A stretch of 64,000 nt of DNA from a virus (Duplodnaviria > Caudoviricetes). How positions within the stretch are numbered: the first letter of the stretch is position 1; the number at the start of each line of letters is the position of its first letter. Made by a program: the position numbers and the translations under genes. The DNA is taken from IMG/VR virus record IMGVR_UViG_3300042542_006078; one strand, given 5' to 3'. Under the pieces are notes generated by a model. The model ran no database searches, was not told where the DNA came from, and saw only the letters and a list, made by a program, of their open reading frames with translations. Positions 8,014 to 46,831 of the stretch are shown here, one piece after another.

Positions 8014-9234
8014 TTACATATTTCCGAGAAAAATTTCTTTTTCTTTTTGATTCATGGAGTTGGCTATTTCAGGGCCTTTCATGTGCATAAAATCTTTTGA
8101 ATTAGTTTGTTGTTTATAGTCAGCGAACTTATGAATGATGTTATTTTTTTGTAGTTTGGCAAATTCTAAGATATCATCTTTTGATCCTTGAAGAATTTCT
8201 TTTCTTTTGATTAGAGGAATGATTGGTGATGTTTCGAGGTTGTTGAGTTTGAGTAGTAGTTCAACTTTGTCTGAAACATCGTTTGTGTATTTGAGTGCTG
8301 ATAGTTTCTTTCTTACTTCTGTTGGTTCTGTGTTATCTCTCAAAATGAATGCTAGAGAAGCTGGGAAGCTTTTGACGCTTTCGATGTTTTGAGTATTTAC
8401 AATAAGTCCGGGTAGTACTGCTGGGAATAGTCCCAATTCTTGGTAATTTTTGAGGTAGCTTGATTTGTCTTTTGCTGATTTGAATCCGCTCATGAATTCT
8501 GCAACTATTCTTTCTCCTGATACACCTTCTAGTGTTTTGTATTTTTCTATTGCTCCGAGAGTATCGGAATCAAGTTGGTCTTTGATTCTGTTTGCATTAA
8601 ATCTACTGAAGAATCGGATCAATCTTAGTACTCTGAGTTTATCTTCTCTGAATCTGTCATATGGATTGCCTACTGGTCTTGCGACAAGGTTTTTGATGTC
8701 TTCAATTCCTTGGCCTTTTCCATTTGTTGTGTTGAAGTCAAGAATAGTTTTTTTATCGATGTCATAGAAAAGGGCATTCATGGTGAGGTCACGCCTGCTC
8801 GCATCTTTATCTGCTGTTGAGAAGCTTACTTTATCAGGTCTTCTTCCATCACCTGATATTGGATCATAATATTCTTCACGGAAAGTAGCTATTTCATATT
8901 CGTTGCCATTAAGGATTGCGGAAATGACACCGAATGCTTCTCCTTTTGGAAGTACTTTAATTCCGTGTCTAAGAGAATCTTGGCTTTTAAGAATTGCTGT
9001 TATTTGATCTGGTGTTGCATCTGTGGTGAGATCGACATCTTTTGGTCCAGAACCTTTTCCAGCCATGTGAAAATGGCTTATGAGGAAGTCACGAATTACT
9101 CCTCCTACTGCATAAAGTTTCTTGTTGTGTTTCTTGAATAGATCATTAAGAACCATGATATCATTAGGCATCGGTATTTCGATGTTGATATATTCTGCTT
9201 TTTCTTCGTTTTCAAGCCAAAGTTTGAATTTCAT
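8014..9234 (-). CDS. cca: Class II tRNA nucleotidyltransferase (CCA-adding enzyme / poly(A) polymerase family), motifs intact, tagged
   Basis: YAVGGVIRD, KDVDL (DxD), ATFREE..GRRPDKV loop, RRDLTMNAL, EDKLRVLRLIRF, SGERIVAEF. Start moved to ATG 9234 (MKFKLWLENE), which has ATAAATA 5 nt upstream. Confidence 0.9.
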   Translation of the reverse strand: MKFKLWLENEEKAEYINIEIPMPNDIMVLNDLFKKHNKKLYAVGGVIRDFLISHFHMAGKGSGPKDVDLTTDATPDQITAILKSQDSLRHGIKVLPKGEAFGVISAILNGNEYEIATFREEYYDPISGDGRRPDKVSFSTADKDASRRDLTMNALFYDIDKKTILDFNTTNGKGQGIEDIKNLVARPVGNPYDRFREDKLRVLRLIRFFSRFNANRIKDQLDSDTLGAIEKYKTLEGVSGERIVAEFMSGFKSAKDKSSYLKNYQELGLFPAVLPGLIVNTQNIESVKSFPASLAFILRDNTEPTEVRKKLSALKYTNDVSDKVELLLKLNNLETSPIIPLIKRKEILQGSKDDILEFAKLQKNNIIHKFADYKQQTNSKDFMHMKGPEIANSMNQKEKEIFLGNM

Positions 9235-9336
9235 GAGATTATTTATGGTATTAGAAAAATTTTTTGGTTTTGCTGAATTTTGGATTTTTCTTGACGAATA
9301 GGTATTGGTTTCTTTGATTTCATAGGAGTGCTTGAA

Positions 9337-9624
9337 ATGCAATACACGACTGTAATTCGTTGTTCTGGTTCTGATTTTGTTGGTAAAGACAAGAATGCTT
9401 TTAAGTCAGCTTTGGCTGCAAAGAAAGGTTTGAATTTGCCCAAAAAGGTTCATGTTTCGATTTCATTGGTTTTGGATGGTACTGAGATATTTCGTTCTCA
9501 TGGATTGGGTTTGAAGAGTGCTTTTTGGAGTTTTAAGGATAAATTGAGAAAGATGAAATTTGAAAGTAAAATTTTGATTGTCAAACCAATTACTTTGGTT
9601 TCGAGAGAGATAAATAAGGCATGA
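9337..9624 (+). CDS. Basic hypothetical protein
   Basis: AGGAG at 9324-9328 precedes ATG 9337; stop overlaps the next start (ATGA). Confidence 0.55.
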   Translation: MQYTTVIRCSGSDFVGKDKNAFKSALAAKKGLNLPKKVHVSISLVLDGTEIFRSHGLGLKSAFWSFKDKLRKMKFESKILIVKPITLVSREINKA

Positions 9625-16832: not shown

Positions 16833-17660
16833 ATGAAAATACTTTATTTGTTGAATGAATCGCCATTTTATATGCAGATGGCTTGGTTCAGTATTTATAC
16901 ATTGAGAAAATTCAACAAGGACATTAAGGTTGAAATTCTATATGTGTGTGATAATCAGAATGATAATAGATATTCTCCTGTGAATTTTGATTTTGGTTTG
17001 GATATTTTTAGTAAAGATACATTTGTTGAATCGTTGAAAAAGTTCGATGTTGAATTTAACTTTGTGCATGATTTAGATTTGAAGGAAGAAAAGGGTTATC
17101 ACCCGATTCACAGGATTGCTTTCCAGAATGTTGAGGATGATCAAATACTACTTCTTGATGCTGACACATTCATATTTGGAGATTTGACTCCATTTTTTAA
17201 TGCTTTGAATTATCATGACTTGGTTGCAGATATAAATGAATGGGGTAGATGGGGCAATAATTTTCCTTACAATGGCTTGGATGTGACACCTTTCAATTCT
17301 GGTGTTGTTCTTTTCAATAAGGGTTTGCTTCGTGATTATGGTAGTCAAGTTTATGATTTGAGCATGTCTGTAAAAGGTGTTGATCATCCAGTCGGAAGAT
17401 GGATGGCTGATTATGAAAGGTTTGAGGGCAGTAATGGTAAGGGGGGAAGAGAAGAGATTGCTTTCACATTGTTTGTTTTGGACAATAAAATTAATTTCAG
17501 GCATTCAACTTTTCGGGAAATACAGACTACTAGAAGATTCACGGATTGTTTGATACATCACACTCAGACACCCAACTATATTCGTTCTTGGAAAAAGTAT
17601 TTTAGATCAGGTGATTTCAAATCTAATCTAAAACTTAAATGTGTTTATCTGCATAAATAA
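16833..17660 (+). CDS. GT-A fold glycosyltransferase (GT8-like)
   Basis: ILLLDADTFIFGDL (DxD), FNSGVVLFN, C-terminal IHH. Confidence 0.8.
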   Translation: MKILYLLNESPFYMQMAWFSIYTLRKFNKDIKVEILYVCDNQNDNRYSPVNFDFGLDIFSKDTFVESLKKFDVEFNFVHDLDLKEEKGYHPIHRIAFQNVEDDQILLLDADTFIFGDLTPFFNALNYHDLVADINEWGRWGNNFPYNGLDVTPFNSGVVLFNKGLLRDYGSQVYDLSMSVKGVDHPVGRWMADYERFEGSNGKGGREEIAFTLFVLDNKINFRHSTFREIQTTRRFTDCLIHHTQTPNYIRSWKKYFRSGDFKSNLKLKCVYLHK

Positions 17661-18262: not shown

Positions 18263-18865
18263 TTAAGCAAAACTATATGTCACTCTTATTGTTGCAGTCA
18301 TTTCTGGAACTCCAATGTTGGTGCAAATTTTGTGTTTTTTTGCTTCTTTTGATGTAAGAAACCAGTCTGCGTGTCCTTTTTCGTGAATGATTTTATCAAA
18401 ATAATCGGTTTGTTGGCCGCAGTTTTCAGCCAACAAACTGAATATTAGCTTGTTGAGTCTTTCTAGTTCTTTTGCATCACTCTTAACTTCTTCTATTTTT
18501 CCTCCTGTCCAAGTTGCCGCATCGTGAAGCATGAGTGTGGCGTGTTCTGCCATCCATCTGGTTTTTCCCATTCCGAAAAGTATTGCTCCAGCAGACATGG
18601 CTTTACCAGTAACAATTGTGTGGACTGGAAGAGATGCCTTTTTCAAATAGTTAATCATACTAAGGCAACCATAAACACTTCCTCCGTATGAGTCGATAAG
18701 AACAGGGATCAGTGGTTGACCAGTATGATGAGCCTTTTCCATATCTTCACGGAAAATTCTCACCCCATTGTCATCAAATGTAGTGACTACAACAATAACT
18801 GGCTGATCAATCAGTTCATTGTGTTTCGCTCGTATGACAGAATCAACCAATAACTTCTTGAACAT
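18263..18865 (-). CDS. clpP: ClpP-family serine protease
   Basis: IDSYGGSVYGCLSM, GKAMSAGAILF (Ser), LMLHD (His), DWFLTSKEAKK (Asp region). Confidence 0.9.
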   Translation of the reverse strand: MFKKLLVDSVIRAKHNELIDQPVIVVVTTFDDNGVRIFREDMEKAHHTGQPLIPVLIDSYGGSVYGCLSMINYLKKASLPVHTIVTGKAMSAGAILFGMGKTRWMAEHATLMLHDAATWTGGKIEEVKSDAKELERLNKLIFSLLAENCGQQTDYFDKIIHEKGHADWFLTSKEAKKHKICTNIGVPEMTATIRVTYSFA

Positions 18866-19183: not shown

Positions 19184-19570
19184 ATGGAAAAAAATCATAA
19201 GCATATGGTTTTGAATGCGACAGTAAGAAATCCCATTGTTTCAGCCGATATGTGTGTTAAATGGCTTACGCAGCTTGTTAATATTATAGACATGCAAATT
19301 TTGATTGATCCGGTTGCGAGATATTGTGACACAGAAGGTAATGAAGGTGTTACTGGAACAGTTGTAATTGAGACAAGTCACGCCAGTATTCATGTGTGGC
19401 ATAAAGAAGAAAACCCATATATCAGAATGGATGTTTATTCTTGCAAGGATTTTTCAGCAGAAAAAATCCTTAACTTTGTAAGGGAAACCATGGACTTGGT
19501 TCATGCGGGATACTTTTTGATAGACAGGAATGATTCATTGCCAAAAATGATTGAAAATGTAATTATTTAA
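19184..19570 (+). CDS. Second SpeD-family pyruvoyl decarboxylase
   Basis: NHKHMVLNA, GVTGTVVIETSHASIHVW, RMDVYSCKDF. GAGGT precedes ATG 19184. Confidence 0.85.
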   Translation: MEKNHKHMVLNATVRNPIVSADMCVKWLTQLVNIIDMQILIDPVARYCDTEGNEGVTGTVVIETSHASIHVWHKEENPYIRMDVYSCKDFSAEKILNFVRETMDLVHAGYFLIDRNDSLPKMIENVII

Positions 19571-20435
19571 TTTTTACTTTTCTTTTATTTAGAATATTTT
19601 TTGCCATCTTAGACATGAAATGTGAATTTGGTGTTGAGATGCAAGTTGATATTTTTTCTATTGGGTCTCCAAAAGAAATAAATTTTGGAGGCGGGAATGT
19701 GAACATGGAATTGCTGAAATCTGGAGGAAGTCCATGTTCATAGTCAATGAATACTGAGTCTGTACTATCATTCATGATGGCAGAAAGTCCAAAGTTTGGA
19801 ATAATTTCTATGTCTTTTGCCGATTCTATGATCGACATAACCCAAGCAAGTCTAATTGTTTCAGACCAAACAGTTTTATTGGCCATGATTTGATTGACGA
19901 TCAATGTTTCGGCAATTCGGATTATTTTCTGAACGAACCATTCTGGGAATCCAGCCAGAACATAGACTTTTCCAAGGTTAAACCAATTGTTTTCGTATAG
20001 TTCTTTTTCCTTGTCGAATTCTTTCCAGAATTCTCCACAATTTTCAACAGCTTTGTCAAATGTAAAAAATGGGTCTTGGACATATATGAAGGCTCTAGCA
20101 TCAAGTGTTTTAATTAGTTTTTCTATTGGCTTCTTCATAACCATATGTGGTTTTATGACGCACAATGGGGTTTTCATTTTATTTGTCATTAGCAAGTGAT
20201 TGATTTGATAAATTTCGTTAAGTGGTTCAAAACCTTTTTTCTTGCCGAAATCATCGTAAATGAAACCATTTTTCAATGAATTAACATGGTTGATATAAGG
20301 GTATCTGTGGCAGCTACCCTTGCTGATACCGACAAATAGTTTGTCGGTGGCAGAATTAATGTTGAAGCTTTCAATCAATAATTCTAGTTGCCAATCGTGA
20401 TATGCTTTTAGGTTGACGCTTACGAAGTAATTCAT
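19563..20435 (-). CDS. Hypothetical protein, possibly a degenerate glycosyltransferase
   Basis: Long ORF; start moved to MNYFVSV at 20435 to avoid overlap with the upstream gene. Confidence 0.5.
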   Translation of the reverse strand: MNYFVSVNLKAYHDWQLELLIESFNINSATDKLFVGISKGSCHRYPYINHVNSLKNGFIYDDFGKKKGFEPLNEIYQINHLLMTNKMKTPLCVIKPHMVMKKPIEKLIKTLDARAFIYVQDPFFTFDKAVENCGEFWKEFDKEKELYENNWFNLGKVYVLAGFPEWFVQKIIRIAETLIVNQIMANKTVWSETIRLAWVMSIIESAKDIEIIPNFGLSAIMNDSTDSVFIDYEHGLPPDFSNSMFTFPPPKFISFGDPIEKISTCISTPNSHFMSKMAKNILNKRKVKIK

Positions 20436-20451
20436 GAGATAATGTAGTAAT

Positions 20452-20796
20452 TTATTTTGAGTCTTTTCCAAATAAGAAATGATGTTCGTATGTCCTATAG
20501 ACCTCGCTATAAGCCACTCCCCATGATGCATCGTGCGATCTTAGTTCAAATTCTTTGTCGTCTAGCGAATCATGAAGGTGATTCCAAGCTCTGGCGTGAG
20601 CCCATTCATGAATGAGGCAGTCTATTGCTGAACCTTCGTCCATTTCTTTGTTGATTCTGATGTAGAACTTCTTTTCGTCCAACATGCAGTCTCCGTCAAT
20701 TCCTACCAGTTTGACACGCCTAACAATGACTGGATATGCTGGAGGTAGATTTTCCCTGAGAACTTTGATTATTTTTCTGTAAACTTCATATCCCAT
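20452..20796 (-). CDS. Small zincin-like metallopeptidase
   Basis: DCLIHEWAHARAW (HExxH), later HDASWG. Confidence 0.65.
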   Translation of the reverse strand: MGYEVYRKIIKVLRENLPPAYPVIVRRVKLVGIDGDCMLDEKKFYIRINKEMDEGSAIDCLIHEWAHARAWNHLHDSLDDKEFELRSHDASWGVAYSEVYRTYEHHFLFGKDSK

Positions 20797-20813
20797 TCGT
20801 CCCCCTAACAGGA

Positions 20814-21407
20814 TCAGAATTTTTCTTTAGAGCCTCTTTTCACATCATGTATAATTACTGTTTTAAGATTTGGATTTTCTTCCTTAAGTTTTAATCCAAG
20901 TTTTGAAAATTCATGTACATGTTCGGGCCTGTCTTCCCATATTTCTAATACTTCATAATCAGAATTCATTAAATTTTTTATATTGTTGGATTTTATTTCA
21001 AAGGTGTTTTCTCCCTTTGTGCCCGGTTGTCCTGCAAAAAATGTGTCGTGGAAATGCATTCCTGCATTTTCCAAAATTTCCATGACACGATTTTTAAGAT
21101 GAATTGCTCTGCCTGTCATGAGGATTACTGTGGCATTAGAATCTTGTGAATCACTCTTCTGTGATTCAACAACATTGCTCACATACCAGCTTGAATCTGG
21201 ATTTTGTGGAACTAATGGAGGAGATAGTGTTTCTTTTCTTCCCCACCAACCCTTGAATGGCCAATTTTTATTGGTGATGTCATAATACATTTGTTTGCCA
21301 TTGTGTTCTTCTGGTGAATGAAACAATGTTCCATCAAAATCGTAAATGACCAGTCTTTTTTCCGCTGTTGATTCTTTCATACACAGATATTCAAGAAAGT
21401 TTTTCAT
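20814..21407 (-). CDS. HAD phosphatase of the RNA-repair (Swiss-army-knife HAD) type, tagged
   Basis: IYDFDGTLFHSP (DxD), GWW, ILMTGR, IWEDRPEHV. Start 21407 (MKNFLEYLCMKE) overlaps the stop of the upstream gene (ATGA). Confidence 0.75.
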   Translation of the reverse strand: MKNFLEYLCMKESTAEKRLVIYDFDGTLFHSPEEHNGKQMYYDITNKNWPFKGWWGRKETLSPPLVPQNPDSSWYVSNVVESQKSDSQDSNATVILMTGRAIHLKNRVMEILENAGMHFHDTFFAGQPGTKGENTFEIKSNNIKNLMNSDYEVLEIWEDRPEHVHEFSKLGLKLKEENPNLKTVIIHDVKRGSKEKF

Positions 21408-22873
21408 AAAATTCTGTCGTTCATTTCTTTCCATCTTTTGGTCATCAGTATTTTTCTCATTTCATCAGGTTCAGATCCAACAGGTTCTCTTCCAAGAAAT
21501 TGTATGAAAATTGGATTGATCTTCTTGTTGCCAAATTCATCTGTGTTGTGCGAATTTAGATCATCTTTGTTAAAATGTAAAAACTGGTCAACCTCTTTTC
21601 CATGCATATTTGCCAAATGCATCCATTCTCGGATTTTGGCTTTTGTCAAACCAGTATGGGACTGAATCATATTGTAGAATTGATTTATGTCAAACTTTGA
21701 TTTGCCCCATTGATAGAATCTGACGAGGTATGCAATGTCGCTTGCTTCCTGCTTGCTCCACCCTCCTGCTATAAGCACATCTTTAACATCAGTTGGGTTG
21801 TTGTTTCTAAGAATCCAAGCAGCAGCCATCCATCTATCACATCTCATGTCGTTAGGAACATCTTCAATATCTATATGAATATTTGGGAATACGATGTTTA
21901 ACAAACCTGTTGAGTGATATGTTTTCAAGAATTTTTTGGCATTGACATCTGGATTTTCCAGACCATTAACGAATTCATCCTTGATTTTATCAGGAGAAAT
22001 ATCTTCGTAATCATCTTCAGATCCTATGTGCTTTAAGTATTCCTCAGGTACATTTTGACCTTTGCCGAAACGGTTGAAGTGATTGACAAGACGGAATGCT
22101 GTCATTGGGTCTTCCTGCATTCTGTCCTCGAATTTGCCGCCAACTGCTTTCATTTCTCCAGATTTCAGGTGATGCGCTCCACCGAAAGGATCGATTAATT
22201 CGCTGTTTGGTCCATCATCGTTGGTTAAAGGAATGTACATTGCATTGATGGTGAAATCTCTGTTGATTGCATCTTCTTCTACACTGGATGCCAATTTAAT
22301 GTCGGATGGATCAAAATATCTGCTCTTTGGTGACTTTGTCATAGATGAAAGTCTAAAAGGTTGTCCTTTTACAACTGCGACAATTTCAAGTTCTTTGCTT
22401 TTTTTATCGGTTCTGCTCACATAGAAAATCTTTTTACCTGATACATCATTGGGTAAATCATCATATTTATTATTATCTATTTGGCCTTTTACTTCCTTGA
22501 ATCCTGAATATTTGAGTATCATCCTGATCTCACTAGCTGTTGCATCAGTTACGAGATCGTAGTTTTTGGGAGTCTTGCCAAGAAGATGGTCCCTAACTGC
22601 TCCTCCTGTCAAAAATATTGATTTTTTCTTGAGTTGCGGCTCTATTTCGCCCTTGTTTCTGTCTATTGTGGTGTATCCTAATCCAACTTTGTCAGAATCT
22701 AGAAATGCTCCTATTAAAGGAGCTAAGTTTGCATGATTGTCCTTGTCAATAATAAATGGAGTAAATTCATTACTTCCCTGTTTTTTTTGCAGCTTTATCT
22801 TAGCTGTAACTCCAACTGGGGCTTCTTCGCTTTCTTCACGAAGTTTGATATATTTTGAGAATAAGCTTTTCAT
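21404..22873 (-). CDS. CCA-adding enzyme paralogue with degenerate catalytic motifs
   Basis: FLTGGAVRDHLLG, KNYDL (DxD changed to NxD; codons aac tac gat checked), INRDFTINA (RRD to NRD), EDPMTAFR (EDxxR to EDxxT). Starts MKSLFSKYIKLREE. Confidence 0.85.
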   Translation of the reverse strand: MKSLFSKYIKLREESEEAPVGVTAKIKLQKKQGSNEFTPFIIDKDNHANLAPLIGAFLDSDKVGLGYTTIDRNKGEIEPQLKKKSIFLTGGAVRDHLLGKTPKNYDLVTDATASEIRMILKYSGFKEVKGQIDNNKYDDLPNDVSGKKIFYVSRTDKKSKELEIVAVVKGQPFRLSSMTKSPKSRYFDPSDIKLASSVEEDAINRDFTINAMYIPLTNDDGPNSELIDPFGGAHHLKSGEMKAVGGKFEDRMQEDPMTAFRLVNHFNRFGKGQNVPEEYLKHIGSEDDYEDISPDKIKDEFVNGLENPDVNAKKFLKTYHSTGLLNIVFPNIHIDIEDVPNDMRCDRWMAAAWILRNNNPTDVKDVLIAGGWSKQEASDIAYLVRFYQWGKSKFDINQFYNMIQSHTGLTKAKIREWMHLANMHGKEVDQFLHFNKDDLNSHNTDEFGNKKINPIFIQFLGREPVGSEPDEMRKILMTKRWKEMNDRIL

Positions 22874-22923
22874 ATTGATCCCTGCTTCTAAGTGTGTTTT
22901 TATTTATGGATTGAATTGCTTTT

Positions 22924-23217
22924 TTAGCTAGGAGGGCTTTGAAGTTTTAACATATATAAAATTAATGCCCCCAAAACCATAAGAGCTATTTTCCATCCAC
23001 CATCAAAAAGTTTTTCCCAAAAACCATGAATGTTTTCAACTTTTAACTTATATGATTCAAGATTTAATTTGAGATTAGAAAATTCAGTTTTAATTTGTTC
23101 TATCTCATTAAATATGTTGTCCTTTTCGTCAGCAAGAGACATGATGCGTTCATCATGTCTTGAAACCTTCTCTAAAAGAGAATCTAGGTTATCTTGTAGT
23201 TGGTTCTTTGTTGACAT
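22924..23217 (-). CDS. Coiled-coil protein with C-terminal TM helix (holin/XhlA-like architecture)
   Basis: Heptad-rich N-terminus, then WKIALMVLGALILYML. Confidence 0.55.
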   Translation of the reverse strand: MSTKNQLQDNLDSLLEKVSRHDERIMSLADEKDNIFNEIEQIKTEFSNLKLNLESYKLKVENIHGFWEKLFDGGWKIALMVLGALILYMLKLQSPPS

Positions 23218-23258
23218 ATTTTACCATTTATGCAGACCTAACTCTATATATTTAAGCA

Positions 23259-23777
23259 ATGAGAAATACAGAAAAAATAAGTGAAAACACAGAAGTCATT
23301 ATACCAGAAAAGGTTGAGGAAACAACCTATATTGAAAATGACATGATGGAAAATTTGATGCCTCCCATGAACATCAATGTTCCTCAAAATCCACCAGCAG
23401 ATAATAATCATCTTATATCAGATGAAAAGTATCTCGATGTTGTTGAAGAAATATTGACTAATATGCGTGATGATAGAAAACAAGTTAGTGAATTTATTGA
23501 TACATTTGCAGATATGGTTTTGAATGATGGTGATGCGACAACATCTTCAAAGGAAGCTCTTGTAAATTTAATTAAAACCAAAGTTGATCTTCAGGATAAG
23601 ATGTTAAAGGCAGCAGACTTGATGACCAGATTGAAATTGAAAAACGCATATGCTTATTCAGGTCCGCATTTGAACGCTTTGCAACAAAACAACATAAATA
23701 TTGGCACAGATGAGAGTAATTTTAATCGCAAGGAAATTATCAGGGCAATAAATCAGGCCAAAAAGAAAAAGGAATAA
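23259..23777 (+). CDS. Hypothetical helical protein
   Basis: 172-aa ORF, first of a tightly packed + strand operon. Confidence 0.65.
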   Translation: MRNTEKISENTEVIIPEKVEETTYIENDMMENLMPPMNINVPQNPPADNNHLISDEKYLDVVEEILTNMRDDRKQVSEFIDTFADMVLNDGDATTSSKEALVNLIKTKVDLQDKMLKAADLMTRLKLKNAYAYSGPHLNALQQNNINIGTDESNFNRKEIIRAINQAKKKKE

Positions 23778-23779
23778 AA

Positions 23780-25117
23780 ATGAGCAGACACGCATTGGAT
23801 TCATGGCTTACCGAAGCGTCTGGTGATGTAGCAGCACCCCAATCACCAATGGGACAACCAGATTCTCCAGTTGGTGCTGGTGGTCCTCCATCTGGCGATC
23901 CTAATGTTGCCAATCCACCTTCTGACATGGCTACTCCATCACCGGGAACACAACAGAATAGTCCAAATGCAGCATCTAAATCAGATGGCCAAGACCAATC
24001 ATCAATGCCAGATGTTGCAAATGATCCACAAGCTCCTGATATGCCGCAACAGCAGGGCAAACAGGATTTTGAAAATTGGAAGAACGAGTTCTTCAAGGCT
24101 AGTGTCCGTGGCGATGTTAACAAAATGATTGAATCAATTCAGCAAATCAGGGACACCAATCTAGAGGCTTATCCAAGAAAGTTTGTCGAAGATAACCTGC
24201 AAATTCTATTTTTGAGACAAAATGCCAATATCGACAAGGCATCTAAAACCATTAGAAACAACATTAAGCAGAACCTCGATCAAAACAATCCATCAGTAAG
24301 CATGGTAAACCACATGTTTTCTGTTCTACAAACCATGCCAGAGTTGAATAATACATTAATCAAGCTAAAGGGATTGCTTGGCATGAAAGGCGACATGCAC
24401 AGGAAATACATGGCAAGCCTTTTGGGAGCTATCCAAGTTGGCTCTGGAGGCAATAACGAGGATTTGATTTATAACGAGCGTGATTATTCAATCAGAATTT
24501 CAACAAGATTTAATGATAAGTGGGGAAAAGTTGATATCGGCAAGTGGAGTATGAGGGAAGATGATCCAGAAAGATTCCTCAGCGATTCAGAACAAAAAAG
24601 GCTTGATGAGGGAAGTCCTGAAGAAAAAGAAGTACTTAGGCACAGGATTGTAATAGAAGCCATATCAGACACATTTAAGAAAAGATCTTTTCTAATCAAT
24701 GTCGTAACCCAAGATGGAACAATCAACACTCTTGGTTGGGACTTGGGAGGAAGCATCAGGAATGCATACACATCTGGAAAACTCATTGTGAAATTAATGC
24801 AAGGAGAAAACACAGAGGCCATGATCGACACAGATGGAGCTATTGTTCCATATGTAGATGTTAAAATAATTTATGTAAAGGATGCTGCTGGCGGTGTTGA
24901 TGACGAAGGAAAGCCCGCCAAAGAAGAACATGAGTTCATGGAAAGAATTGATGGAATTTTATTCCTTACTGCTCAATACAATATATTAAAAGAGGCTGCA
25001 TCTTCATTCGGAGGCATTGTTCTCAAAGAAACTCCTTATTCTGGCAATCCTAGCGACTTGCAAGTTTTAATGAGATGTGTTCCGAGTGCGCCTGAAATTC
25101 TCTTAAGAAATTGTTGA
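23780..25117 (+). CDS. Hypothetical protein with Pro/Gln/Asp-rich N-terminus, probably virion-associated
   Basis: 445 aa; MSRHALDSWLTE followed by a low-complexity segment. Confidence 0.65.
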   Translation: MSRHALDSWLTEASGDVAAPQSPMGQPDSPVGAGGPPSGDPNVANPPSDMATPSPGTQQNSPNAASKSDGQDQSSMPDVANDPQAPDMPQQQGKQDFENWKNEFFKASVRGDVNKMIESIQQIRDTNLEAYPRKFVEDNLQILFLRQNANIDKASKTIRNNIKQNLDQNNPSVSMVNHMFSVLQTMPELNNTLIKLKGLLGMKGDMHRKYMASLLGAIQVGSGGNNEDLIYNERDYSIRISTRFNDKWGKVDIGKWSMREDDPERFLSDSEQKRLDEGSPEEKEVLRHRIVIEAISDTFKKRSFLINVVTQDGTINTLGWDLGGSIRNAYTSGKLIVKLMQGENTEAMIDTDGAIVPYVDVKIIYVKDAAGGVDDEGKPAKEEHEFMERIDGILFLTAQYNILKEAASSFGGIVLKETPYSGNPSDLQVLMRCVPSAPEILLRNC

Positions 25118-25143
25118 TTAAAATATTTATGGAAGTAGGAAAA

Positions 25144-25626
25144 ATGGAATTTTTTCTTGAATTCATCGACAGAAAACAGCGTGAGGCAAAGAAACAATTG
25201 AAACTTGTTGAGAAGGCTCTACGCAAAGCAAAACTTCATGTTTATTCTCATCTTGAAGATGAGGATGAAGATCCTTATCTTTTTGTAAAGTCAAATAACA
25301 AAAAACTGAGTTTTGAAGGTGTCCGTGTTTATCACATTGGTGACGGCATAGCATATAGAATTCAGAAGCTTGAAAGTACTGAACCATATGGAAAATCTTA
25401 TGAATTGAATGCTGAAGAAATGTTCAATGATTTCATGAGTGATGATATGGACGAGAAAGAGGCTGCTAATAAAGTTATGGAGGCCATAGGAAAAGAAATT
25501 AAGAATTTCTTTCATAAAAGTGCCAAGGCCGAAGAGGAACTCAGAACTGGTCAGAAAGATGGAGTAGGTATGATTGTGAAGACTGGAGGATCTGATTATA
25601 GCAGCACTGTGCTAAATAGATTGTAA
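25144..25626 (+). CDS. Acidic hypothetical protein
   Basis: AGGA precedes ATG 25144 (MEFFLEFIDRK). Confidence 0.65.
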   Translation: MEFFLEFIDRKQREAKKQLKLVEKALRKAKLHVYSHLEDEDEDPYLFVKSNNKKLSFEGVRVYHIGDGIAYRIQKLESTEPYGKSYELNAEEMFNDFMSDDMDEKEAANKVMEAIGKEIKNFFHKSAKAEEELRTGQKDGVGMIVKTGGSDYSSTVLNRL

Positions 25627-25932: not shown

Positions 25933-26421
25933 ATGGCAGTTCCATTTGTAGATGCTCTTTTACCGGGAGCTAATGAAAGGCCCGTGACCAACGCAGTTGG
26001 AAGAGGAAGTCTCGTTACATTTGGCTATTCTTTTCACAAGCCCGGCCATGATCCATATCCAGTAGTCTTGATTACTGATATTTGGCCAAACTACATTCGT
26101 GGAATAAACCTGAATTATCTTACATTCCCGACAATTAAAAAAATGGTTTTCCCTTCTCCCGGTCAAACTGTATGTGACAGTCCTAATTTTACCTATCAAT
26201 TCATCAAGGGGAATGACTACATAGTTTCAGCATTCCGTCAGTATAAGCGCAATGGAATCCAGAGACTTAAAAAGTTGGATTGCGCTTTTATCGTGAAGGC
26301 TCTCGGATTATCTCGATCATTCGATCCAAATGAGATAGAAGCGATAAGAAAATCAGTCCGAGAACAGATACGCCAGCTTGTCAATCAAAAGGCAGCACCC
26401 ACAGGCGAAATGACGGCATAA
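25933..26421 (+). CDS. T4 gp2-like DNA end protector protein
   Basis: DPYPVVLITDIWPNYIRGINLNYL resembles gp2 D-x-x-P-L-V...GLNLHYL; located next to the tail module. Confidence 0.6.
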   Translation: MAVPFVDALLPGANERPVTNAVGRGSLVTFGYSFHKPGHDPYPVVLITDIWPNYIRGINLNYLTFPTIKKMVFPSPGQTVCDSPNFTYQFIKGNDYIVSAFRQYKRNGIQRLKKLDCAFIVKALGLSRSFDPNEIEAIRKSVREQIRQLVNQKAAPTGEMTA

Positions 26422-26508: not shown

Positions 26509-29500
26509 ATGGACCAAACAGCAATCGACAATCTTGGCAGAACAATAACTCCTTTAATAGGAAGTATTGATGCTCTTCGTAGTGCCTTGGGCTCTTTGAA
26601 GACTGGTGATCCTCAGGCAGTTGGAGGAGATCCCAAAGCAATCAGTGATCTTACTGGTCTGATGTCAGAGTTTATCAAAGATTTCAAAAAATCAGCAGAT
26701 GAAGAAAAATCTTTGCTTAACGAAGTAGTAAATGCCATGAAAAGTGGCAAGGCTTCGAGGTCTAAAACAAAAGCTTCATCAGGAGGAACTGGACCAGATT
26801 CTAAAAGTGCTAAAAATTCTGAGGAAATCGCCGACAATCAGGAAAGAGCCAATAACGCACAGACAAGTGGTTATAAAACCGGCCAATTAATGAGAAATCT
26901 TTCAAATGAATTGAAAATTAATTATAAAGAACATAATAGTTTATTGGAAAAAGCAATCCAAAATGTTGTAGAACAAAATAACCATCAAGCAAAAATAACA
27001 GATAGCCAATTTAATGGCTATCAAATAACAAAAGAATTGAACGAAGAACAAAAAAAACTTGTAAAGGCGGAATTTGACAGTCTTCTTTATCAAAGGAAAT
27101 CTACTGATGCGGCTTATAAATTTAGGCAACAGCTTTCTGATGTTAGATCGACTTTTGACAGCATAAATTCATCACTTGGAATTCAAACAAATTTAACAGA
27201 AGGTCTTGTCAAGGAAGAAGCCCAATTTACAAGAGATGTTCGTGCTGCCGCTTATGAAACTGCTGGAGTTACAAAAAACAGCAAATCTCTTCAAAGAGTT
27301 TACGAAGATATAGGCACAAGTGTAAGAGCAACAGGAGTTGATAGAACTAAGTTCCAGCAATCTTATATGAAAGCCCTTAAGGGTGGCGTAAAAGACTTGA
27401 AACAGGCTGTTTCTTTGACGACAACTCAGTTAAATACCGAACAACAACTTGGAATGGAAGCCGGTTCTCTTCAAGACACATTTCAAGGCATGGCTCAATC
27501 AGGTCGAATGACAAATAGTCAAATATCTGAAGTCGGTCGTGGAATGCGTGATGTTGCAAGGAATACTGGTCTTACTGGAGAGGCACTTAGAGGCGCTGTG
27601 GATTCAAGCCGTGAAATTATCAATCAACTAAGAAATGCTGCGAATCTTACTGCTACTGCAACCAAGAATGTTATTGAAATGAATGCCAACGCCAAGAAAC
27701 TTGGAGTTGAAAGTCAGATGCAAAGTCTGCAAAGCGGTTTGACAAGCGGTGCTAAACTTCTGACCGAATCATCTACCGAAACAAGAAATGCCATTTTAAT
27801 GGCTGCTGGGAAAACAGGTAAGCTCAGAGAAGCAATGAATGGCACATTGCTTGATACAAAGGATGGAATCAAGTCTTTAGGCAAGGGATTCCAAGGAATT
27901 CTAAAAGATTTCGGAGTTGGTAGCCTTGAAGAAATTGATCAGTTATCAGCAGAAGCAAAAACAAGACTAAATATTCAGTTAAAATCCGTTGTGGGTATGG
28001 AATTAGGGGAATTCCGATCATTGATTGAATCTGTTAATGAAGCGGGCAAGGGATTGGGAGACAGACTGACAGATATCAATAAGAAGATGCAAGGAAACAT
28101 AACTGCCGACGAAAAAAAGAATTTAATGGAAGAGCAAAGAAGATTAAAAGCAAGCAAACAACTTGAGATGCTGACAGCCCTCGATGAAGCAGCCAAGGGT
28201 GCCAAGGACATGAATGGTGCCTTGGCTAAGTTTGGTGAAAAGAAAAAGGATTTTGAAGGCGATTTACAAGCTTTGGGAACTAGTTGGACAGACTCTACTC
28301 AAGTTGCTAGAGAATCTATTAGAGGAGCCTTGGAAAATGTTAACCAAGGACTAAAAGAAGCTGGAAAATCTCAATTAAAAATTGATTCGACTGAAATAGA
28401 AAAAGCCCTCAAAGACCCAACAGCACTTCGTGAATTGACTGCTAAAATTACCAAAGGAGAACAAGAACTTGCTACTGCTCAAAAAGCGCAACTTGATCCA
28501 GTAACTCAATCTAATCAATATTTGAGTGAAATCAATGACAATATGAGAAACTTGTCTCAGAACATCATGTCAAAGGGCATGAATAGCATAGTTGGACAAG
28601 GCGCTGTGGCAGCTAGCGTAATGGGATCACTTGCAACCCAATTCGGTCAATTTGCTTCTTCATCATCAGAAACATTTGGAGATCTTAAAGGAGCTTTATT
28701 TGGAAAAGCAAGGGTTGGAGATAAAGAAGCAGAAAAAAGTATTTTTGGCAACATAAAAACTTTGATTTTTGGAGCAGGAAAAGAATCTGGACAACAACCA
28801 GAAGAAGCGGCAAAAACTGCTGGCCAAGCAGCTACAACAGAAGCAGCAAAAACTGCTGGCCAAGCAGCTACAACAGAAGCAACAACTACCCAAAAACCAT
28901 TAGATGCATTTTTAGCTGCTGGTTTAAGTAGCAAGGGCGAAGTACCAACTTCAGCATCACAAAAAGCAGAGAGTGCTGCTGGTAAGGAAGCGTCAGATAA
29001 GTCTGGCGGTATTTCTGGCGGAAAATACATGAAAGTTTTCCAAGACATGATCACTTCAATTGAACTGATGGGTGTATGTTGTGAAAGAACACATGAGTCG
29101 ATAAAAACAGCAATTGCTGCACTTGAGCATATTGCTAAATGTTGTGATTTAACAAATAATTCGATACAAAAAGCTATTGAATCTGTTAAATCTCCTTCTC
29201 CGACTGCTACTGCTTCTGCTGCTGAAGCTAAACCAAATGCCGCAGAAGATGCTATAAACAAAAAAATTCAAGATCAGCAAATGGAGAATGCAATAACCGA
29301 TGCAAATGTAAACAAAATTAAAATTAGAGAACAGAAAAAAGAAGTAAGAATGTTGAGGGTTGATCAAAGACTTCAAAGAGAAGAAGTCAAGGAATCTAAA
29401 ACAAAAGAAGCTGAATCTTCTGCTGGAGGGGCGGCAACAGGACCACCAGATGCATCAGTACTTGATCCAAAAGCCATGGAACAGGGCGGCAAATCAATGA

Positions 29501-32500
29501 TGAAGACGGCAGCTTCTGCCGCCGTTCTTACTGCTGGCGCTGTTCTTCTTGGTGCTGCTATCATGTTCTTGGGCGATAAGCTTTTGAAATTATTGAATAT
29601 TGATGTCAACAGGATGATGGAAATAGGTACTGCATTAACCGCTCTTGTTGGGGTGACAGCAGCAGTTACGGCAGCAAGTGTATTTGTAAGTGAAAAAATA
29701 CTAGAATTTGCTCCAAAAGTAGAAGAAATTAGAAAACAATCTGGAACATTAATTAAAACAGCATTGGCATTGGTTCTTATTGGTTCTGCTCTAGTTTTGT
29801 TTGGAGCAGCACTGGTTGGAATTACCGGCAAAATTCTTAGTATGTCTGGTCTTGATGCTGCTTCAACGATTGAAATTGCAGCAAATATTGGCGCATTGGC
29901 TGCTGTTGCTAGTGGTGTGGCAGTAGCAACTGTTGAGTTCGCTGAAGTATTGCAGGAATTCACAGAAAGCGCAATGTACCAGCAACTAAGTAAAAATCCT
30001 AAAGAATATGTCATGAAAATTCTTAAGGCAGCAGCAGTAATAGGTGCATTCAGCGTTGGTATTGTGACATTTGGAGCATTATTAGTAAAGGCTATTCAGG
30101 GAATTCTTTATGTTACAGGAATTGATGCTTCTGTAGTCACTGGAGTTGTAGATACACTTTGGGCTCTTGGCTGGGGAGTAGGAAAGATAGTATTGGCCAC
30201 AGCAGCAGCGGTTGGCGTTATTATGGGCCTAGGATGGGCTTTTAGTTTGATAAATAATCCTGCTGGATGGACTTTACTTGGAGTCGGGGCCGCTGCTATC
30301 GCTGTAGCAGTACCATTAATTGCTGCTTTTTCAATAGGTGTCATATACGCTGCTGCCGCATTTTCAAATCTGATGGACACAAAGACTGCTAATGATGTAG
30401 CTGATGGAATAGCAGCAATTGCTGGATCAACAACAAGAATTGTTGGAGCATTGGCAGGCGCAGCCGCATCACTGGTAGGTTTGGCTGGAGTTGGCGTAAC
30501 AGCCTTTTTCTTATCATTCATAATAGGATACGCAACAGATGCAGTTAATGCAATAGTTCCAGTATTGGTAGATTTTTCTAATGCAGCAGTTAAAGCAGCA
30601 AAGTCAATTGTCGGAGTAATTCCTCCAAGACTTGTAGATGAAGCCACTTCTGGAATGCAAACAGTATTAGATGGTGTTAGAAAAATAGGTTCTGCAATAG
30701 TGGGAATGATTCCATACTTGTCTGGAATGAGTGCTTTGGGAACAATAAGTGGCATTCTAGCTAATATTTTATATTTGGCAGGATGGGCAATCTTAGATTT
30801 AACTCCTCCTATTGTGTTTTTTGGGACGGCAGTAATAATTGCGGCAAAAGCAATAGTTTCAATCATTAATCCAAAATATGTTCAAAGTGCTGTAGAAGGA
30901 GTCGAAGCGGTTCTAAATGCCGTTAAGACTATTGGAACAGCAATGAAAAACATGTCAGATTTTTTATATGGATTTTCTAGTAATTATGATTTCACTGGTT
31001 GGGTGCCAATGTGGTTGTATATGGCATCAGATGCAATAATAACCATTAAGAATCCAATTCTTTATTATGCACTTGTTATAAAAAATTTCGCAAAAGCACT
31101 TGGTGCTGTTTTTAGTCCACGACTTGCAAAAGGTGCTTCTGAAGGAGTTACGGCAGTAGTTGATGCAATAACCGATATAACAAATTCCATAATGAAATTA
31201 AAGGAAACAATTGACAAATATTCAACAACTGCGTTATATGCAGGTGTGCTTGTCTGGTGGATGAATGGTGCAATTAGATTCTTTCAAATAATTCAAGAAC
31301 CAATTATAAATTTTGGAATAGCAATAAGTGATTTTGCATTGGCTCTCAATACTGCTTTTAGCGCAAGACTTGCAAAGAGTGCTTCTGAAGGTGTGAATGC
31401 TATTATCGGAGCTATAACTGAAATTACAACTTCTGTTATGGAATTTAAGAAAACAATTGACAAATATTCTGTTTGGGCACCCGACTGGGTTGCTTGGTGG
31501 CTAAGGGGCGCTGTTACTTACATGCAAACAATAAGAGAGCCAATTGTAAATTTTGTAATAGAAGTAATGGGTCTTGCACAAGAATTAGGTAATAATGTAA
31601 AAATTGGTCCGGCCAAATTACTTGCAAAGACATTAACTGTTTTGTCAACAATTATTGAAAAAACAACGACAGTAATAAGCGATCTTTCCAACAAGTTAGT
31701 TCCATTAGTGAGAGGAGGTTGGTTTAAGAAATCTCCAGCAGAACTTATAAAAGAATCAGAAAACAAATTGAAGAGTTTCTTCAAAACAGTATCTGGACTT
31801 GTTGTTTCAATAATCGATGAAGTCCAAACAAACTTCAAAGATATTGGAAAATTGAAATCTACTGCTAAAATTCTTATGGTTGTTGGAATGATAATAACCG
31901 AGATGGCAAAAGCAGTTGAATTATTCTCGACAAAAATAATGCCTTTTACAAAGAAAGATTTTGCAACAGGTAAGTCTCCAATAGAAAAAATAAATGAATC
32001 TCAGGGTCAACTTGGTAAATTCTTTGAAAATATAAGTAATCTTATTTCTGAAGGAATAGTTGCTCCAGTATCAATGATTGGAAATGTTGAAACATTGAAG
32101 CCAGTTGCTAAGACATTGGCTGTTATTTCAGTTTTGTTGAATGAAGCAGCCAAGACAATCAAGGCTTTAGCTGATGTTGTTGGATTAATGGACCCAGTAA
32201 GCTTCTTCCAAGAATCGCCAATAAGTAAAATTTCTAAGTATAAAAATCAATTTGCAGAATATTTCCTTGAAATAGCTGATTTGGTTACTTGGGGAATTGT
32301 TTGGCCAATTCTCTTTGCTATGCCAAATACAGAAGACTTAAGAAAAGCTCAGACAATTTTAATTGGAGTTGCAACAATTGCTTGCGCTACAGGAAAAACA
32401 ATCAAATCTCTTGCTGAAGTAATGGCTCTGATGGACCCTGTTAGTTTGTTTTTTGATTCTCCCATGGAAAAAATTGTCAATAACAAAAAACAATTTACAG

Positions 32501-46108: not shown

Positions 46109-46831
46109 ATGTCATTTATAAACTGGGTGAAGAATAGAGATAATGATCTTTATTGTGAGTTCATCTTGCAGGATGAGTATGGCAATGAAAATACAGACAG
46201 CAAAAAAGAACTTGTTGTTCTGGTCGGACCTCCAGCAGTTGGCAAAAGCACATATATAGCTCAAAAATTTCATTCAGATGATGTTTTTGTTGTAAGTCGT
46301 GATGAAATAGTTGATCGTGTATCAAAAGATTACGACATGACATATGATGATATGTTTGCATTACCTCCAAAAGATGCTTTGCCAAATACTAGCGTGGCTG
46401 GAATGGAAAAGTATGGGAATGTGCAAAAAGCTCCTTTGTGGATGAAATGGACTCCCGTGGTTTTCGATAGAGTTCAAGAAGCGAATGATAGAATAAATAA
46501 TTTATTGCAAAAAAGATTTGCTGATGCAGTAAATTCTGACCTGAATATTGTTGTTGATATGACAAACATGACAGCTTCTGTTCGCAAGAACGCTTTGAAA
46601 CATGCAGACAAAAAAGATTATTTCAAAAGAGCGGTGGTTTTTACATTTCAGGATTCTGATCTTCCTGAATTGATGAGAAGAATGAAAGAAAGAAGCGATA
46701 AGATTAGAAAGCAGGGAGGAAGCAAAACAATTGGCGAAGATGTCGTCAATAGAATGATTCAAAGTTTTGAAGCTATAGATCCGAAAGAAGGATTTGACCG
46801 AGTTGACACAATCAATACTTTTTCTGTTTGA
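46109..46831 (+). CDS. P-loop kinase, polynucleotide-kinase-like (AAA_33 type)
   Basis: VVLVGPPAVGKSTY, VVSRD, VVDMTNMTASVR, lid RMKER. Starts MSFINWVKNRD. Confidence 0.8.
   Translation: MSFINWVKNRDNDLYCEFILQDEYGNENTDSKKELVVLVGPPAVGKSTYIAQKFHSDDVFVVSRDEIVDRVSKDYDMTYDDMFALPPKDALPNTSVAGMEKYGNVQKAPLWMKWTPVVFDRVQEANDRINNLLQKRFADAVNSDLNIVVDMTNMTASVRKNALKHADKKDYFKRAVVFTFQDSDLPELMRRMKERSDKIRKQGGSKTIGEDVVNRMIQSFEAIDPKEGFDRVDTINTFSV

Follow-up and report, generated by a model that had tools for sequence, protein, structure and literature searches.

Can a phage keep, under strong selection, a tRNA nucleotidyltransferase that has lost the residues by which such enzymes add CCA, and if so, what might the protein be kept for? 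This question is raised by a pair of genes in a 64,000-nucleotide stretch of Caudoviricetes DNA (referred to here as the window; G+C content approximately 35%), which is part of the 136.7-kb IMG/VR virus record IMGVR_UViG_3300042542_006078. Since the record is estimated to be 31% complete, the genome of this phage is roughly 400 kb or more in size. The first gene of the pair encodes P0001, a class II CCA-adding enzyme homologue, and the second encodes a phosphatase of the HAD_SAK_1 family. To our knowledge, every CCA-adding enzyme is regarded as catalytic. Our data indicate that P0001 belongs to a large phage family that is most probably inactive and is maintained by purifying selection, and we propose that it may be kept as a binder of tRNA 3' ends.

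The family PF01743 (PolyA_pol head) matches residues 86-240 of P0001 with 72.5 bits against a cut-off of 23, and PHROG families annotated as tRNA nucleotidyltransferase match the protein as well. NCBIfam models for CCA enzymes and PcnB all score far under their cut-offs (PRK10885 reaches 52 bits against 451). Alignment with solved CCA enzymes places the replaced residues of P0001 inside known motifs. Motif A reads GGAVRDHLLGKTPK-N104-Y-D106 where class II enzymes have DxD, and the three other catalytic features that we tested, namely the third carboxylate, RRD, and the templating EDxxR, are missing too (Table 1). A preliminary description of this locus had reported NxD, NRD, and EDxxT within an intact frame of 489 codons; direct reading of the codons confirmed all three, and the loss of the third carboxylate comes in addition. 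In P0001, all three metal-carboxylate positions and both arginines that hold or template the nucleoside triphosphate (NTP) are replaced, mostly by conserved Asn, Asn, and Thr. The overall fold is predicted to have survived these replacements. An AlphaFold2 model built from the family alignment has a mean predicted local distance difference test score of 84.9, and Foldseek aligned 400-490 columns of it with class II CCA enzymes (E = 3e-11; template modelling (TM) score up to 0.70 by target). Among PDB entries, the 46 that match the model best are all class II CCA enzymes or poly(A) polymerases in full-length form, some of them with tRNA. By this model, P0001 retains the complete head-neck-body-tail architecture.

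We asked whether the replacements are shared by relatives of P0001. A protein search recovered more than 120 full-length homologues (44-100% identity, on contigs of up to 670 kb), and 121 were aligned with MAFFT. Position 104 is Asn in 109 of the 121 homologues, the others having Gly, Ser, His, or Asp together with a second Asp changed to Asn. Position 204 is likewise Asn in 109, position 258 is Thr in 108, and neither position is Arg in any homologue. The preliminary description had set beforehand that homologues retaining DxD would mark the changes as private decay; DxD is retained in 0 of 121 members of this clade, and only deeper orthologues keep it. The column of the third carboxylate is variable in the clade that lacks the catalytic residues (the dead clade, more than 120 clusters at 90% identity) and is Glu in all relatives that look active. 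Some members of the dead clade read NYN at motif A, both Asp being gone. Nonetheless 60 columns are invariant among 39 diverse members, down to 44% identity. For pairs with unsaturated synonymous divergence, the ratio of nonsynonymous to synonymous substitution rates (dN/dS) is 0.03-0.09 in the dead clade, NYN members included, compared to 0.05-0.07 in the active-looking relatives.

These results bear on the simplest account of P0001, that it is a decaying pseudogene or a sequencing or assembly error private to this contig. Such an account could point to the fact that two of the three changes are single base substitutions (GAC/GAT to AAC, Asp to Asn; AGA to ACA, Arg to Thr). We consider it refuted, given an intact frame, the same residues in more than 100 homologues, the low dN/dS, and the recurrence of the locus in independent data. 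The protein is encoded again, at 99.8-100% identity, on another IMG/VR contig that comes from a different sample, and the 90% cluster of P0001 comprises 24 sequences from 5 contigs. A 2.6-kb stretch of the locus occurs nearly verbatim in lake and freshwater metagenomes of at least eight studies, none of them marked as a possible source of the record. Positions 20700-23300 are covered, with 3-6 differences and no insertions or deletions, by contigs of three independent studies of lake or freshwater DNA; none of the differences falls in the motif codons or in the stop/start overlap of the two genes, and six of the seven in-gene differences lie at third codon positions. P0001 therefore lacks essential catalytic residues and stands under purifying selection, as pseudoenzymes do, and these data suggest that its family represents maintained, most probably inactive pseudoenzymes rather than decaying genes, in line with what the preliminary description had supposed. 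One metatranscriptome library contained two short contigs at 21928-22187 and 22836-23084 (94-99% likeness), although DNA may be present in such libraries, so that they do not demonstrate transcription.

Published mutants allow the motif losses to be read in terms of activity. The AxA variant of the E. coli CCA enzyme is inactive, and when EDxxR of the human enzyme was randomised and selected in vivo, the Asp or the Arg was never replaced (PMC11784652). Because the corresponding residues are missing, P0001 has very probably lost CCA-adding activity. Public sources label these genes "tRNA nucleotidyltransferase/poly(A) polymerase", which as a statement of activity is probably wrong for this family. 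The former active site is at the same time among the best conserved parts of the protein. In the clade of the window, conservation is highest in the head core (residues 86-124), with a mean entropy of 0.59 bits, and in the family-specific N-terminal domain (0.98), followed by the body and tail (1.55) and the neck (1.73). A conserved pocket in which Asp has become Asn, and Arg has become Asn or Thr, fits a site that receives a ligand without binding metal or NTP. Judged by the modelled fold, the most plausible ligand would be the 3' end of a tRNA.

We next placed P0001 among its relatives by scanning viral contigs, in which 56 loci contained a full-length relative. In a maximum-likelihood tree these long forms are monophyletic, with 100% support in the Shimodaira-Hasegawa-like approximate likelihood ratio test. 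Its basal members (L040-L044, L047, L048, L050, and L052) have DxD, Glu, RRD, and EDxxR, and most of them have a downstream HAD gene. Clade A, to which the window belongs (33 distinct sequences), sits on a stem of 0.66 changes per site and has NYD, no fixed residue at the third carboxylate, NRD, and EDPxT, with further eroded members that read NYN, SRD, GRD, or YRD. Clade B (L051, L054, L055, and L057; stem 1.04) has NIE, NVE, or DIQ, again no fixed third carboxylate, GRD or SRD, and EDPxR, and it groups with another active-looking sequence than clade A does. Two further members (L038 and L039) read DYN with the remaining motifs intact. Forcing clades A and B into one clade cost 26 log-likelihood units (approximately unbiased test, p = 0.0375), a moderate support for groups that were named after the tree was seen. 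An exhaustive search with representatives at 50% identity gave approximately 49 clusters at E <= 1e-30, whose motif states run from canonical through many partial patterns to forms that have lost even GG and RD (e.g., GSSVRNL / NYE / NNH / KNKEP). Because of the tree and of these many motif states, catalytic residues appear to have been lost at least twice, in a recurrent and progressive erosion across the long-form family. The deeper orthologues with DxD set the direction of change, which by this tree runs from active to dead. P0001 is a syntenic orthologue of the active-looking long forms. A recent duplication of the second CCA-type gene of the window was considered as its source and rejected, since the two proteins share 25% identity and fall into separate clades.

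The features that set the long forms apart from ordinary CCA enzymes, namely an N-terminal peptide, a basic domain of approximately 60 residues, and two head insertions, are common to active-looking and dead members. They are therefore not a compensation for the lost residues. For the same reason we rejected a head insertion with conserved D156, K160, and E161 as a candidate replacement catalytic site. A comparison of domain charges, whose signal was weak and confounded, gave a more basic N-terminal domain in clade A, a faint hint that RNA may be gripped differently.

The gene order around the family is conserved, with c7, c3, c1, and c2 on one strand and c4, the CCA-like gene, HAD, c8, c9, c16, and a ClpP-type protease on the opposite strand. 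The c3, c1, and c2 genes are present in 56 of 56 loci, always on the strand opposite to the CCA-like gene. The protein downstream of P0001 matches PF10307 (HAD_SAK_1, the 'Swiss army knife' family) with 56.8 bits against a cut-off of 25.6 (E = 3.3e-15), while phosphatase-domain families of PNKP match it more weakly. Its HAD motifs, D23-F-D25-G-T27 (DFDGT), MTGR (T98), K139, and EDR (D159), are invariant in 18 homologues, which suggests a HAD_SAK_1 phosphatase in working order. The overlap of the stop codon of the CCA-like gene with the HAD start in ATGA, claimed earlier, was read directly, and overlaps or short gaps recur in relatives. In 29 of 56 loci a HAD homologue accompanies the CCA-like gene, in most of them as the next gene downstream, with overlaps of 4, 8, and 11 nucleotides (L007, L010, and L044), a gap of 2 nucleotides (L039), and otherwise gaps mostly of 2-95 nucleotides (maximum 2.7 kb); a search of whole records placed it 7.7 kb away in one genome. 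Since HAD accompanies active-looking members and both dead clades, the linkage appears to be ancestral and older than the loss of catalytic residues. HAD is thus a frequent, ancestral partner, translationally coupled here and not obligate. In a HAD-less subclade (L034-L036, L046, and L053), the dead protein is approximately 70-90 residues shorter at its C terminus (395-410 amino acids), and the same genes show extra erosion (SRD, YRD, GRD, NYN) at a dN/dS that is still low.

If the long form no longer adds CCA, a second enzyme might do so. An intact paralogue approximately 12 kb from P0001, as the preliminary description had stated, is indeed present (8014-9234, minus strand), with DVD, EIATFR, RRD, and EDKLR all in place and a PF01743 score of 85 bits. 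Its longest open reading frame (ORF; 8014-9342) opens at a TTG at 9342; ATG 9234 is most likely the true start, because it gives an N-terminal peptide like that of P0001, because TAAATA lies 5 nucleotides upstream, and because it agrees with the N termini of orthologues. The paralogue is 25% identical to P0001 and falls in a different clade of phage CCA enzymes. Three further large contigs with the dead form also encode an orthologue of it (48-50% identity), which begins with the same N-terminal peptide, so that dead form and canonical orthologue occur together in four of six large contigs (G000, G003, G004, and G005). In the other two, which are 69% and an estimated 100% complete, we found no second CCA gene; absences of this kind are soft in general, as most contigs that carry relatives are fragments. 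Two 98%-complete genomes with an active-looking long form have that single CCA gene only. In this small sample, the distribution agrees with a second enzyme having taken over catalysis and the long form having been kept for another role.

Two further arrangements of second enzymes were observed. Two related phages, in which the long form reads DYN and DYD, add a class II nucleotidyltransferase of 229 amino acids (L085:1489-2178, plus strand; L086:1414-2175, minus strand) that is limited to head and neck and lacks none of the catalytic motifs; this small protein may act as a mini CCA enzyme or as a nucleotidyltransferase in signalling. In G003 (L073:1387-3110, plus strand), the canonical CCA orthologue is followed with a 4-nucleotide overlap by an AAA_33 P-loop kinase (E = 1.3e-16) that has the same kind of N-terminal peptide. 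This pair of active CCA enzyme and kinase mirrors the pair of dead CCA protein and phosphatase in the window.

The N-terminal peptide deserves attention of its own. P0001 opens with MKSLFSKYIKLREE, and nearly all long-form relatives, whether active-looking or dead, open with M..F..[FY]..h[KR]E. When 410 Met positions were tested for the pattern M.{1,4}F..[FYW].{1,6}E, it was present at 13 first-Met N termini and at 2 other Met positions. All 13 tagged starts lie within the first 23 kb of the window; one belongs to HAD and one to the canonical paralogue, and the ORFs are otherwise unrelated. A TAAATA box, a candidate late promoter element of the T4 type, precedes P0001, and in nine other tagged genes TAAATA stands 4-5 nucleotides before the ATG, so that late transcripts of these nine genes would be leaderless or nearly so. 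In phage T4, N-terminal peptides of 10-20 residues direct internal proteins and Alt into the prohead and are removed by the prohead protease (as summarized in PMC5694885). By likeness to these peptides, capsid targeting is a possible function of the tag on P0001. Located 2.5 kb downstream of HAD, and on its strand, is a gene for a ClpP-type head-maturation protease, which is syntenic in 18 loci. The idea that the CCA-like gene is part of a prohead-core gene cluster was not supported by anything beyond this nearby protease, its direct neighbours being enzyme-like.

What, then, is the dead protein kept for? Our best explanation, to which we give a probability of about 0.5 as a whole chain, is that P0001 binds tRNA 3' ends without catalysis and works, in this phage, together with HAD in end healing. 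Synthesis of CCA would have been handed to the second enzyme, and the long form would have been kept for an ability to recognise a tRNA and to hold that tRNA's 3' end in the conserved head pocket. The dead enzyme would bind and present a damaged tRNA 3' end, the co-translated HAD_SAK_1 3'-phosphatase would remove a phosphate from the presented end, and the canonical enzyme would then rebuild CCA. The shared tag and the box resembling a late promoter suggest that dead CCA protein, HAD, and canonical CCA enzyme may all be made late and possibly be packaged in the capsid.

Several observations weigh against this explanation. Binding of tRNA by P0001 is a prediction from the modelled fold, and relative to active-looking long forms, the body and tail of both dead clades are more acidic by approximately 4 charge units, a weak and confounded signal that hints at a perhaps relaxed grip on the tRNA body. 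In several lineages HAD is cleanly missing from the conserved block, the CCA-like gene being followed directly by c8 and c9; a subclade of 15 sequences has no HAD within 6 kb, and a search of whole records found HAD_SAK_1 nowhere in two contigs that are 79% and 64% complete. Because the dead protein is equally constrained in HAD-less lineages, HAD cannot be the general reason for keeping it. The contig of estimated 100% completeness without a second CCA gene runs counter to a hand-over, and the support for separate losses is moderate and came from groups chosen after the fact. Two proposals of the preliminary description are affected. That the protein is an adaptor for the phosphatase is weakened by the presence of HAD in 29 of 56 loci, its deletion in subclades, and its absence from two large contigs. 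That the protein is a partner of the active enzyme draws on one observation, the co-occurrence in four of six large contigs, and is opposed by the complete contig that lacks the partner. Likewise, of the conservation that the description had proposed to check, NxD and EDxxT are kept in 108-109 of 121 homologues and the HAD linkage has been lost in many lineages.

The tag raises the alternative that P0001 is a capsid-packaged internal or ejection protein, which would fill or organise the head or be injected with the DNA, with the CCA fold as an inherited scaffold whose tRNA chemistry is dispensable. The tag is kept family-wide whatever the state of the active site, the same peptide opens 13 ORFs of the window including HAD and the canonical CCA enzyme, the T4 proteins offer a precedent, the TAAATA box and the head-maturation protease are close by, and repeated erosion up to loss of GG and RD would fit a role independent of the pocket. 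However, no region is more conserved in clade A than the head with the former active site, and its replacement residues are fixed, which argues for a ligand pocket. The direct neighbours look like enzymes (one resembles a glycosyltransferase and another, weakly and below threshold, a restriction endonuclease) and not like head proteins, and the tag coincides with near-leaderless starts in nine tagged genes, so that it could be a feature of translation initiation. We regard such a role in the virion as a doubtful, though the strongest, rival. A combination of both ideas is also conceivable, and we consider it improbable. Huge freshwater phages might package a tag-targeted tRNA 3'-end kit of dead CCA protein, HAD, and active CCA enzyme and inject it with their DNA, the dead enzyme acting as a clamp that presents or shields 3' ends at the start of infection. 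If this were true, the repeated loss of catalysis would mean that end binding, and not CCA synthesis, has been selected in this lineage.

Low dN/dS in lineages without HAD, and in a complete genome without a second CCA gene, would also be expected of a stand-alone decoy or inhibitor that caps or sequesters tRNA 3' ends, either shielding them from host nucleases and CCA-modifying toxins or blocking host tRNAs. The conserved head pocket agrees with such a role, as a change of Asp to Asn preserves geometry and stops catalysis. Stoichiometric capping of the tRNA pool of a cell would, however, need very high expression, and the ancestral and still frequent HAD operon, together with the coupling in this phage, suggests joint action; we hold a stand-alone decoy to be unlikely. 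P0001 might instead still be an enzyme with changed chemistry, having another metal arrangement or working on a different substrate, as a hydrolase or a transferase, through D95, D106, E199, D201, D206, or D228. Its replacement residues and many acidic residues of its head are strictly conserved. On the other hand, each of the three canonical metal ligands has been lost or varies, some members reading NYN, both NTP-binding arginines are gone, and wider relatives erode further, to the point of losing GG and RD. None of the acidic residues named above is a new invention, as ordinary CCA enzymes or active-looking long forms conserve them too. A new activity therefore appears somewhat less likely still than a decoy, and binding and presentation of tRNA ends remains the explanation that we prefer.

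The features of the locus are collected in Table 1. The c4 ORF has only a weak PHROG match (hemolysin). Of the ORFs c3, c1, and c2, the protein of 445 amino acids (23780-25117) has structural likeness in the Atlas to restriction endonucleases, with a TM score under 0.5, which is below the usual threshold for the same fold. Pfam and PHROGs returned nothing for 19563-20796 and 25933-26421. A gene resembling glycosyltransferases at 19563-20531 on the minus strand (Atlas features HPAT, DUF7164, and GT8) is syntenic in 31 loci, and with a gene at 16833-17660 on the plus strand, which has a weak Pfam match to Glyco_transf_8, it brackets the conserved block. After this block follows a single ORF of 2,708 amino acids (26509-34635, plus strand). 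An AAA_33 P-loop kinase is encoded at 46109-46831 on the plus strand (E = 3e-18) and is the sole one of that type found in the 136-kb record. ARAGORN found no tRNA genes in the window. RNA ligase PF09414 (Rnl2-type) and RtcB were not found in the 136-kb record, which carries little weight as the record covers approximately 31% of the genome.

Table 1. Features of the window discussed in the text, with positions counted from its first nucleotide.
Feature	Position	Strand	Details
CCA-like gene P0001	21404..22873	-	open ORF, 489 amino acids; long form without catalytic residues
Tag-like N-terminal peptide of P0001	22832..22873	-	residues 1-14; M1, F5, and E13 at least 90% conserved in the family
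Basic N-terminal domain of P0001	22619..22807	-	residues 23-85; family-specific, ordinary CCA enzymes without it; 16 of 63 columns invariant
Motif A metal site, NYD for DxD	22556..22564	-	N104-Y-D106; codons AAC TAC GAT, read directly
Third catalytic carboxylate (E of EIATFR), replaced by R174	22352..22354	-	next residues SMT for TFR
Motif B, NRD for RRD	22256..22264	-	N204-R-D206; codons read directly
Motif D, EDPMT for templating EDxxR	22100..22114	-	E254-D-P-M-T258; codons read directly
ATGA stop/start overlap of CCA-like gene and HAD gene	21404..21407	-	TGA 21404-21406, ATG 21405-21407; read directly
HAD_SAK_1 phosphatase (predicted)	20814..21407	-	197 amino acids from MKNFLEYL, within ORF 20814-21434
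TAAATA box, candidate T4-type late promoter -10 element	22901..22906	-	27 nucleotides upstream of the P0001 ATG
Canonical CCA-adding enzyme paralogue	8014..9234	-	406 amino acids from MKFKLWLENEE; every motif intact; tagged
ClpP-type head-maturation protease	18263-18865	-	Pfam CLP_protease E = 6e-20; PHROG head maturation protease E = 4e-28
ORF c4	22924..23217	-	97 amino acids; coiled coil and C-terminal hydrophobic segment; adjoins CCA-like gene upstream; kept in 52 of 56 loci
ORFs c3, c1, c2	23259-25626	+	172, 445, and 171 amino acids; syntenic; no Pfam or PHROG match
Tagged gene starts	593, 1200, 2072, 2751, 3307, 3726, 6048, 9234, 9621, 10711, 12612, 21407, 22873		

The family is of interest beyond this locus. 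It represents a large, strongly selected, dead family, a syntenic core gene of a clade of huge phages in which both the fold and the former active site are conserved. For the study of tRNA nucleotidyltransferases it offers a natural variant that resembles a substrate trap, with active and dead orthologues that can be compared side by side. Many host defences cut or modify tRNAs, which makes the handling of tRNA 3' ends by giant phages a topical question, and the family provides a testable lead on it. Within the literature searched, such a dead phage CCA family appears to be undescribed; the mechanism given above is a proposal.

Compared with known class II CCA-adding enzymes (PF01743; PDB 6Q52/7OTR from Planococcus, 1MIV from Geobacillus, and 5HC9 from Thermotoga with tRNA), P0001 has the same head and the same fold over its full length. 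Like these enzymes it retains the GGxVRD, DFTxNA, and DPxGG elements; unlike them it has the extra tag, the basic N-terminal domain of approximately 60 residues, the two head insertions, and NYD, NRD, and EDPMT at the catalytic motifs. By fold and descent P0001 appears to be a homologue of class II CCA enzymes, and we do not class it as a CCA-adding enzyme because the four defining catalytic features fail. The closest comparison is with the active-looking long forms (L040-L044, L047, L048, L050; P0124, P0131, and P0136), which are orthologous and syntenic and have 35-39% identity to P0001 over the full length. They share with P0001 the tag, the N-terminal domain, the head insertions, and the downstream HAD_SAK_1 gene, and differ by intact DxD, Glu, RRD, and EDxxR.

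The comparison with the internal proteins and Alt of T4 concerns the tag. In both cases a short amphipathic N-terminal peptide that ends in h-x-E is found on many unrelated enzymes, together with a TAAATA that resembles a late promoter. In contrast to T4, the prohead protease here is of the ClpP type and not of the gp21 type, and packaging and cleavage are putative here. An account of RNA-repair components in jumbo phages lists CCA enzymes and standalone SAK HAD phosphatases and does not mention inactive forms (PMC7824862). In the literature that we searched, whose coverage is incomplete and gives no proof of novelty, we found neither an inactive or pseudo CCA enzyme reported from phages nor the pairing of a HAD phosphatase with a dead CCA-type protein. 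Relative to the phosphatase domain of T4 Pnkp, the HAD phosphatase here is not fused to a kinase, and the logic of the operon resembles end healing of the Pnkp type.

Two bacterial arrangements complete the comparison. Aquifex, Deinococcus, Bacillus halodurans, and others divide CCA addition between a CC-adding and an A-adding enzyme, and in both of these the catalytic carboxylates are retained, as is the templating motif. The phages likewise have two class II paralogues per genome; here, as the preliminary description had correctly distinguished, one partner has lost the carboxylates and the templating motif alike, and the paralogues, at 25% identity, come from separate phage clades. In E. 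coli Cca, the nucleotidyltransferase is fused to an HD phosphatase and 2',3'-cyclic phosphodiesterase (NCBIfam PRK10885). The same logic, a CCA-type protein joined with a phosphoesterase that is able to clean tRNA 3' ends, may have applied to the ancestral long form and its HAD neighbour. In the locus studied here the phosphatase is a separate protein with a HAD rather than an HD fold, and its CCA-type partner is most probably non-catalytic.

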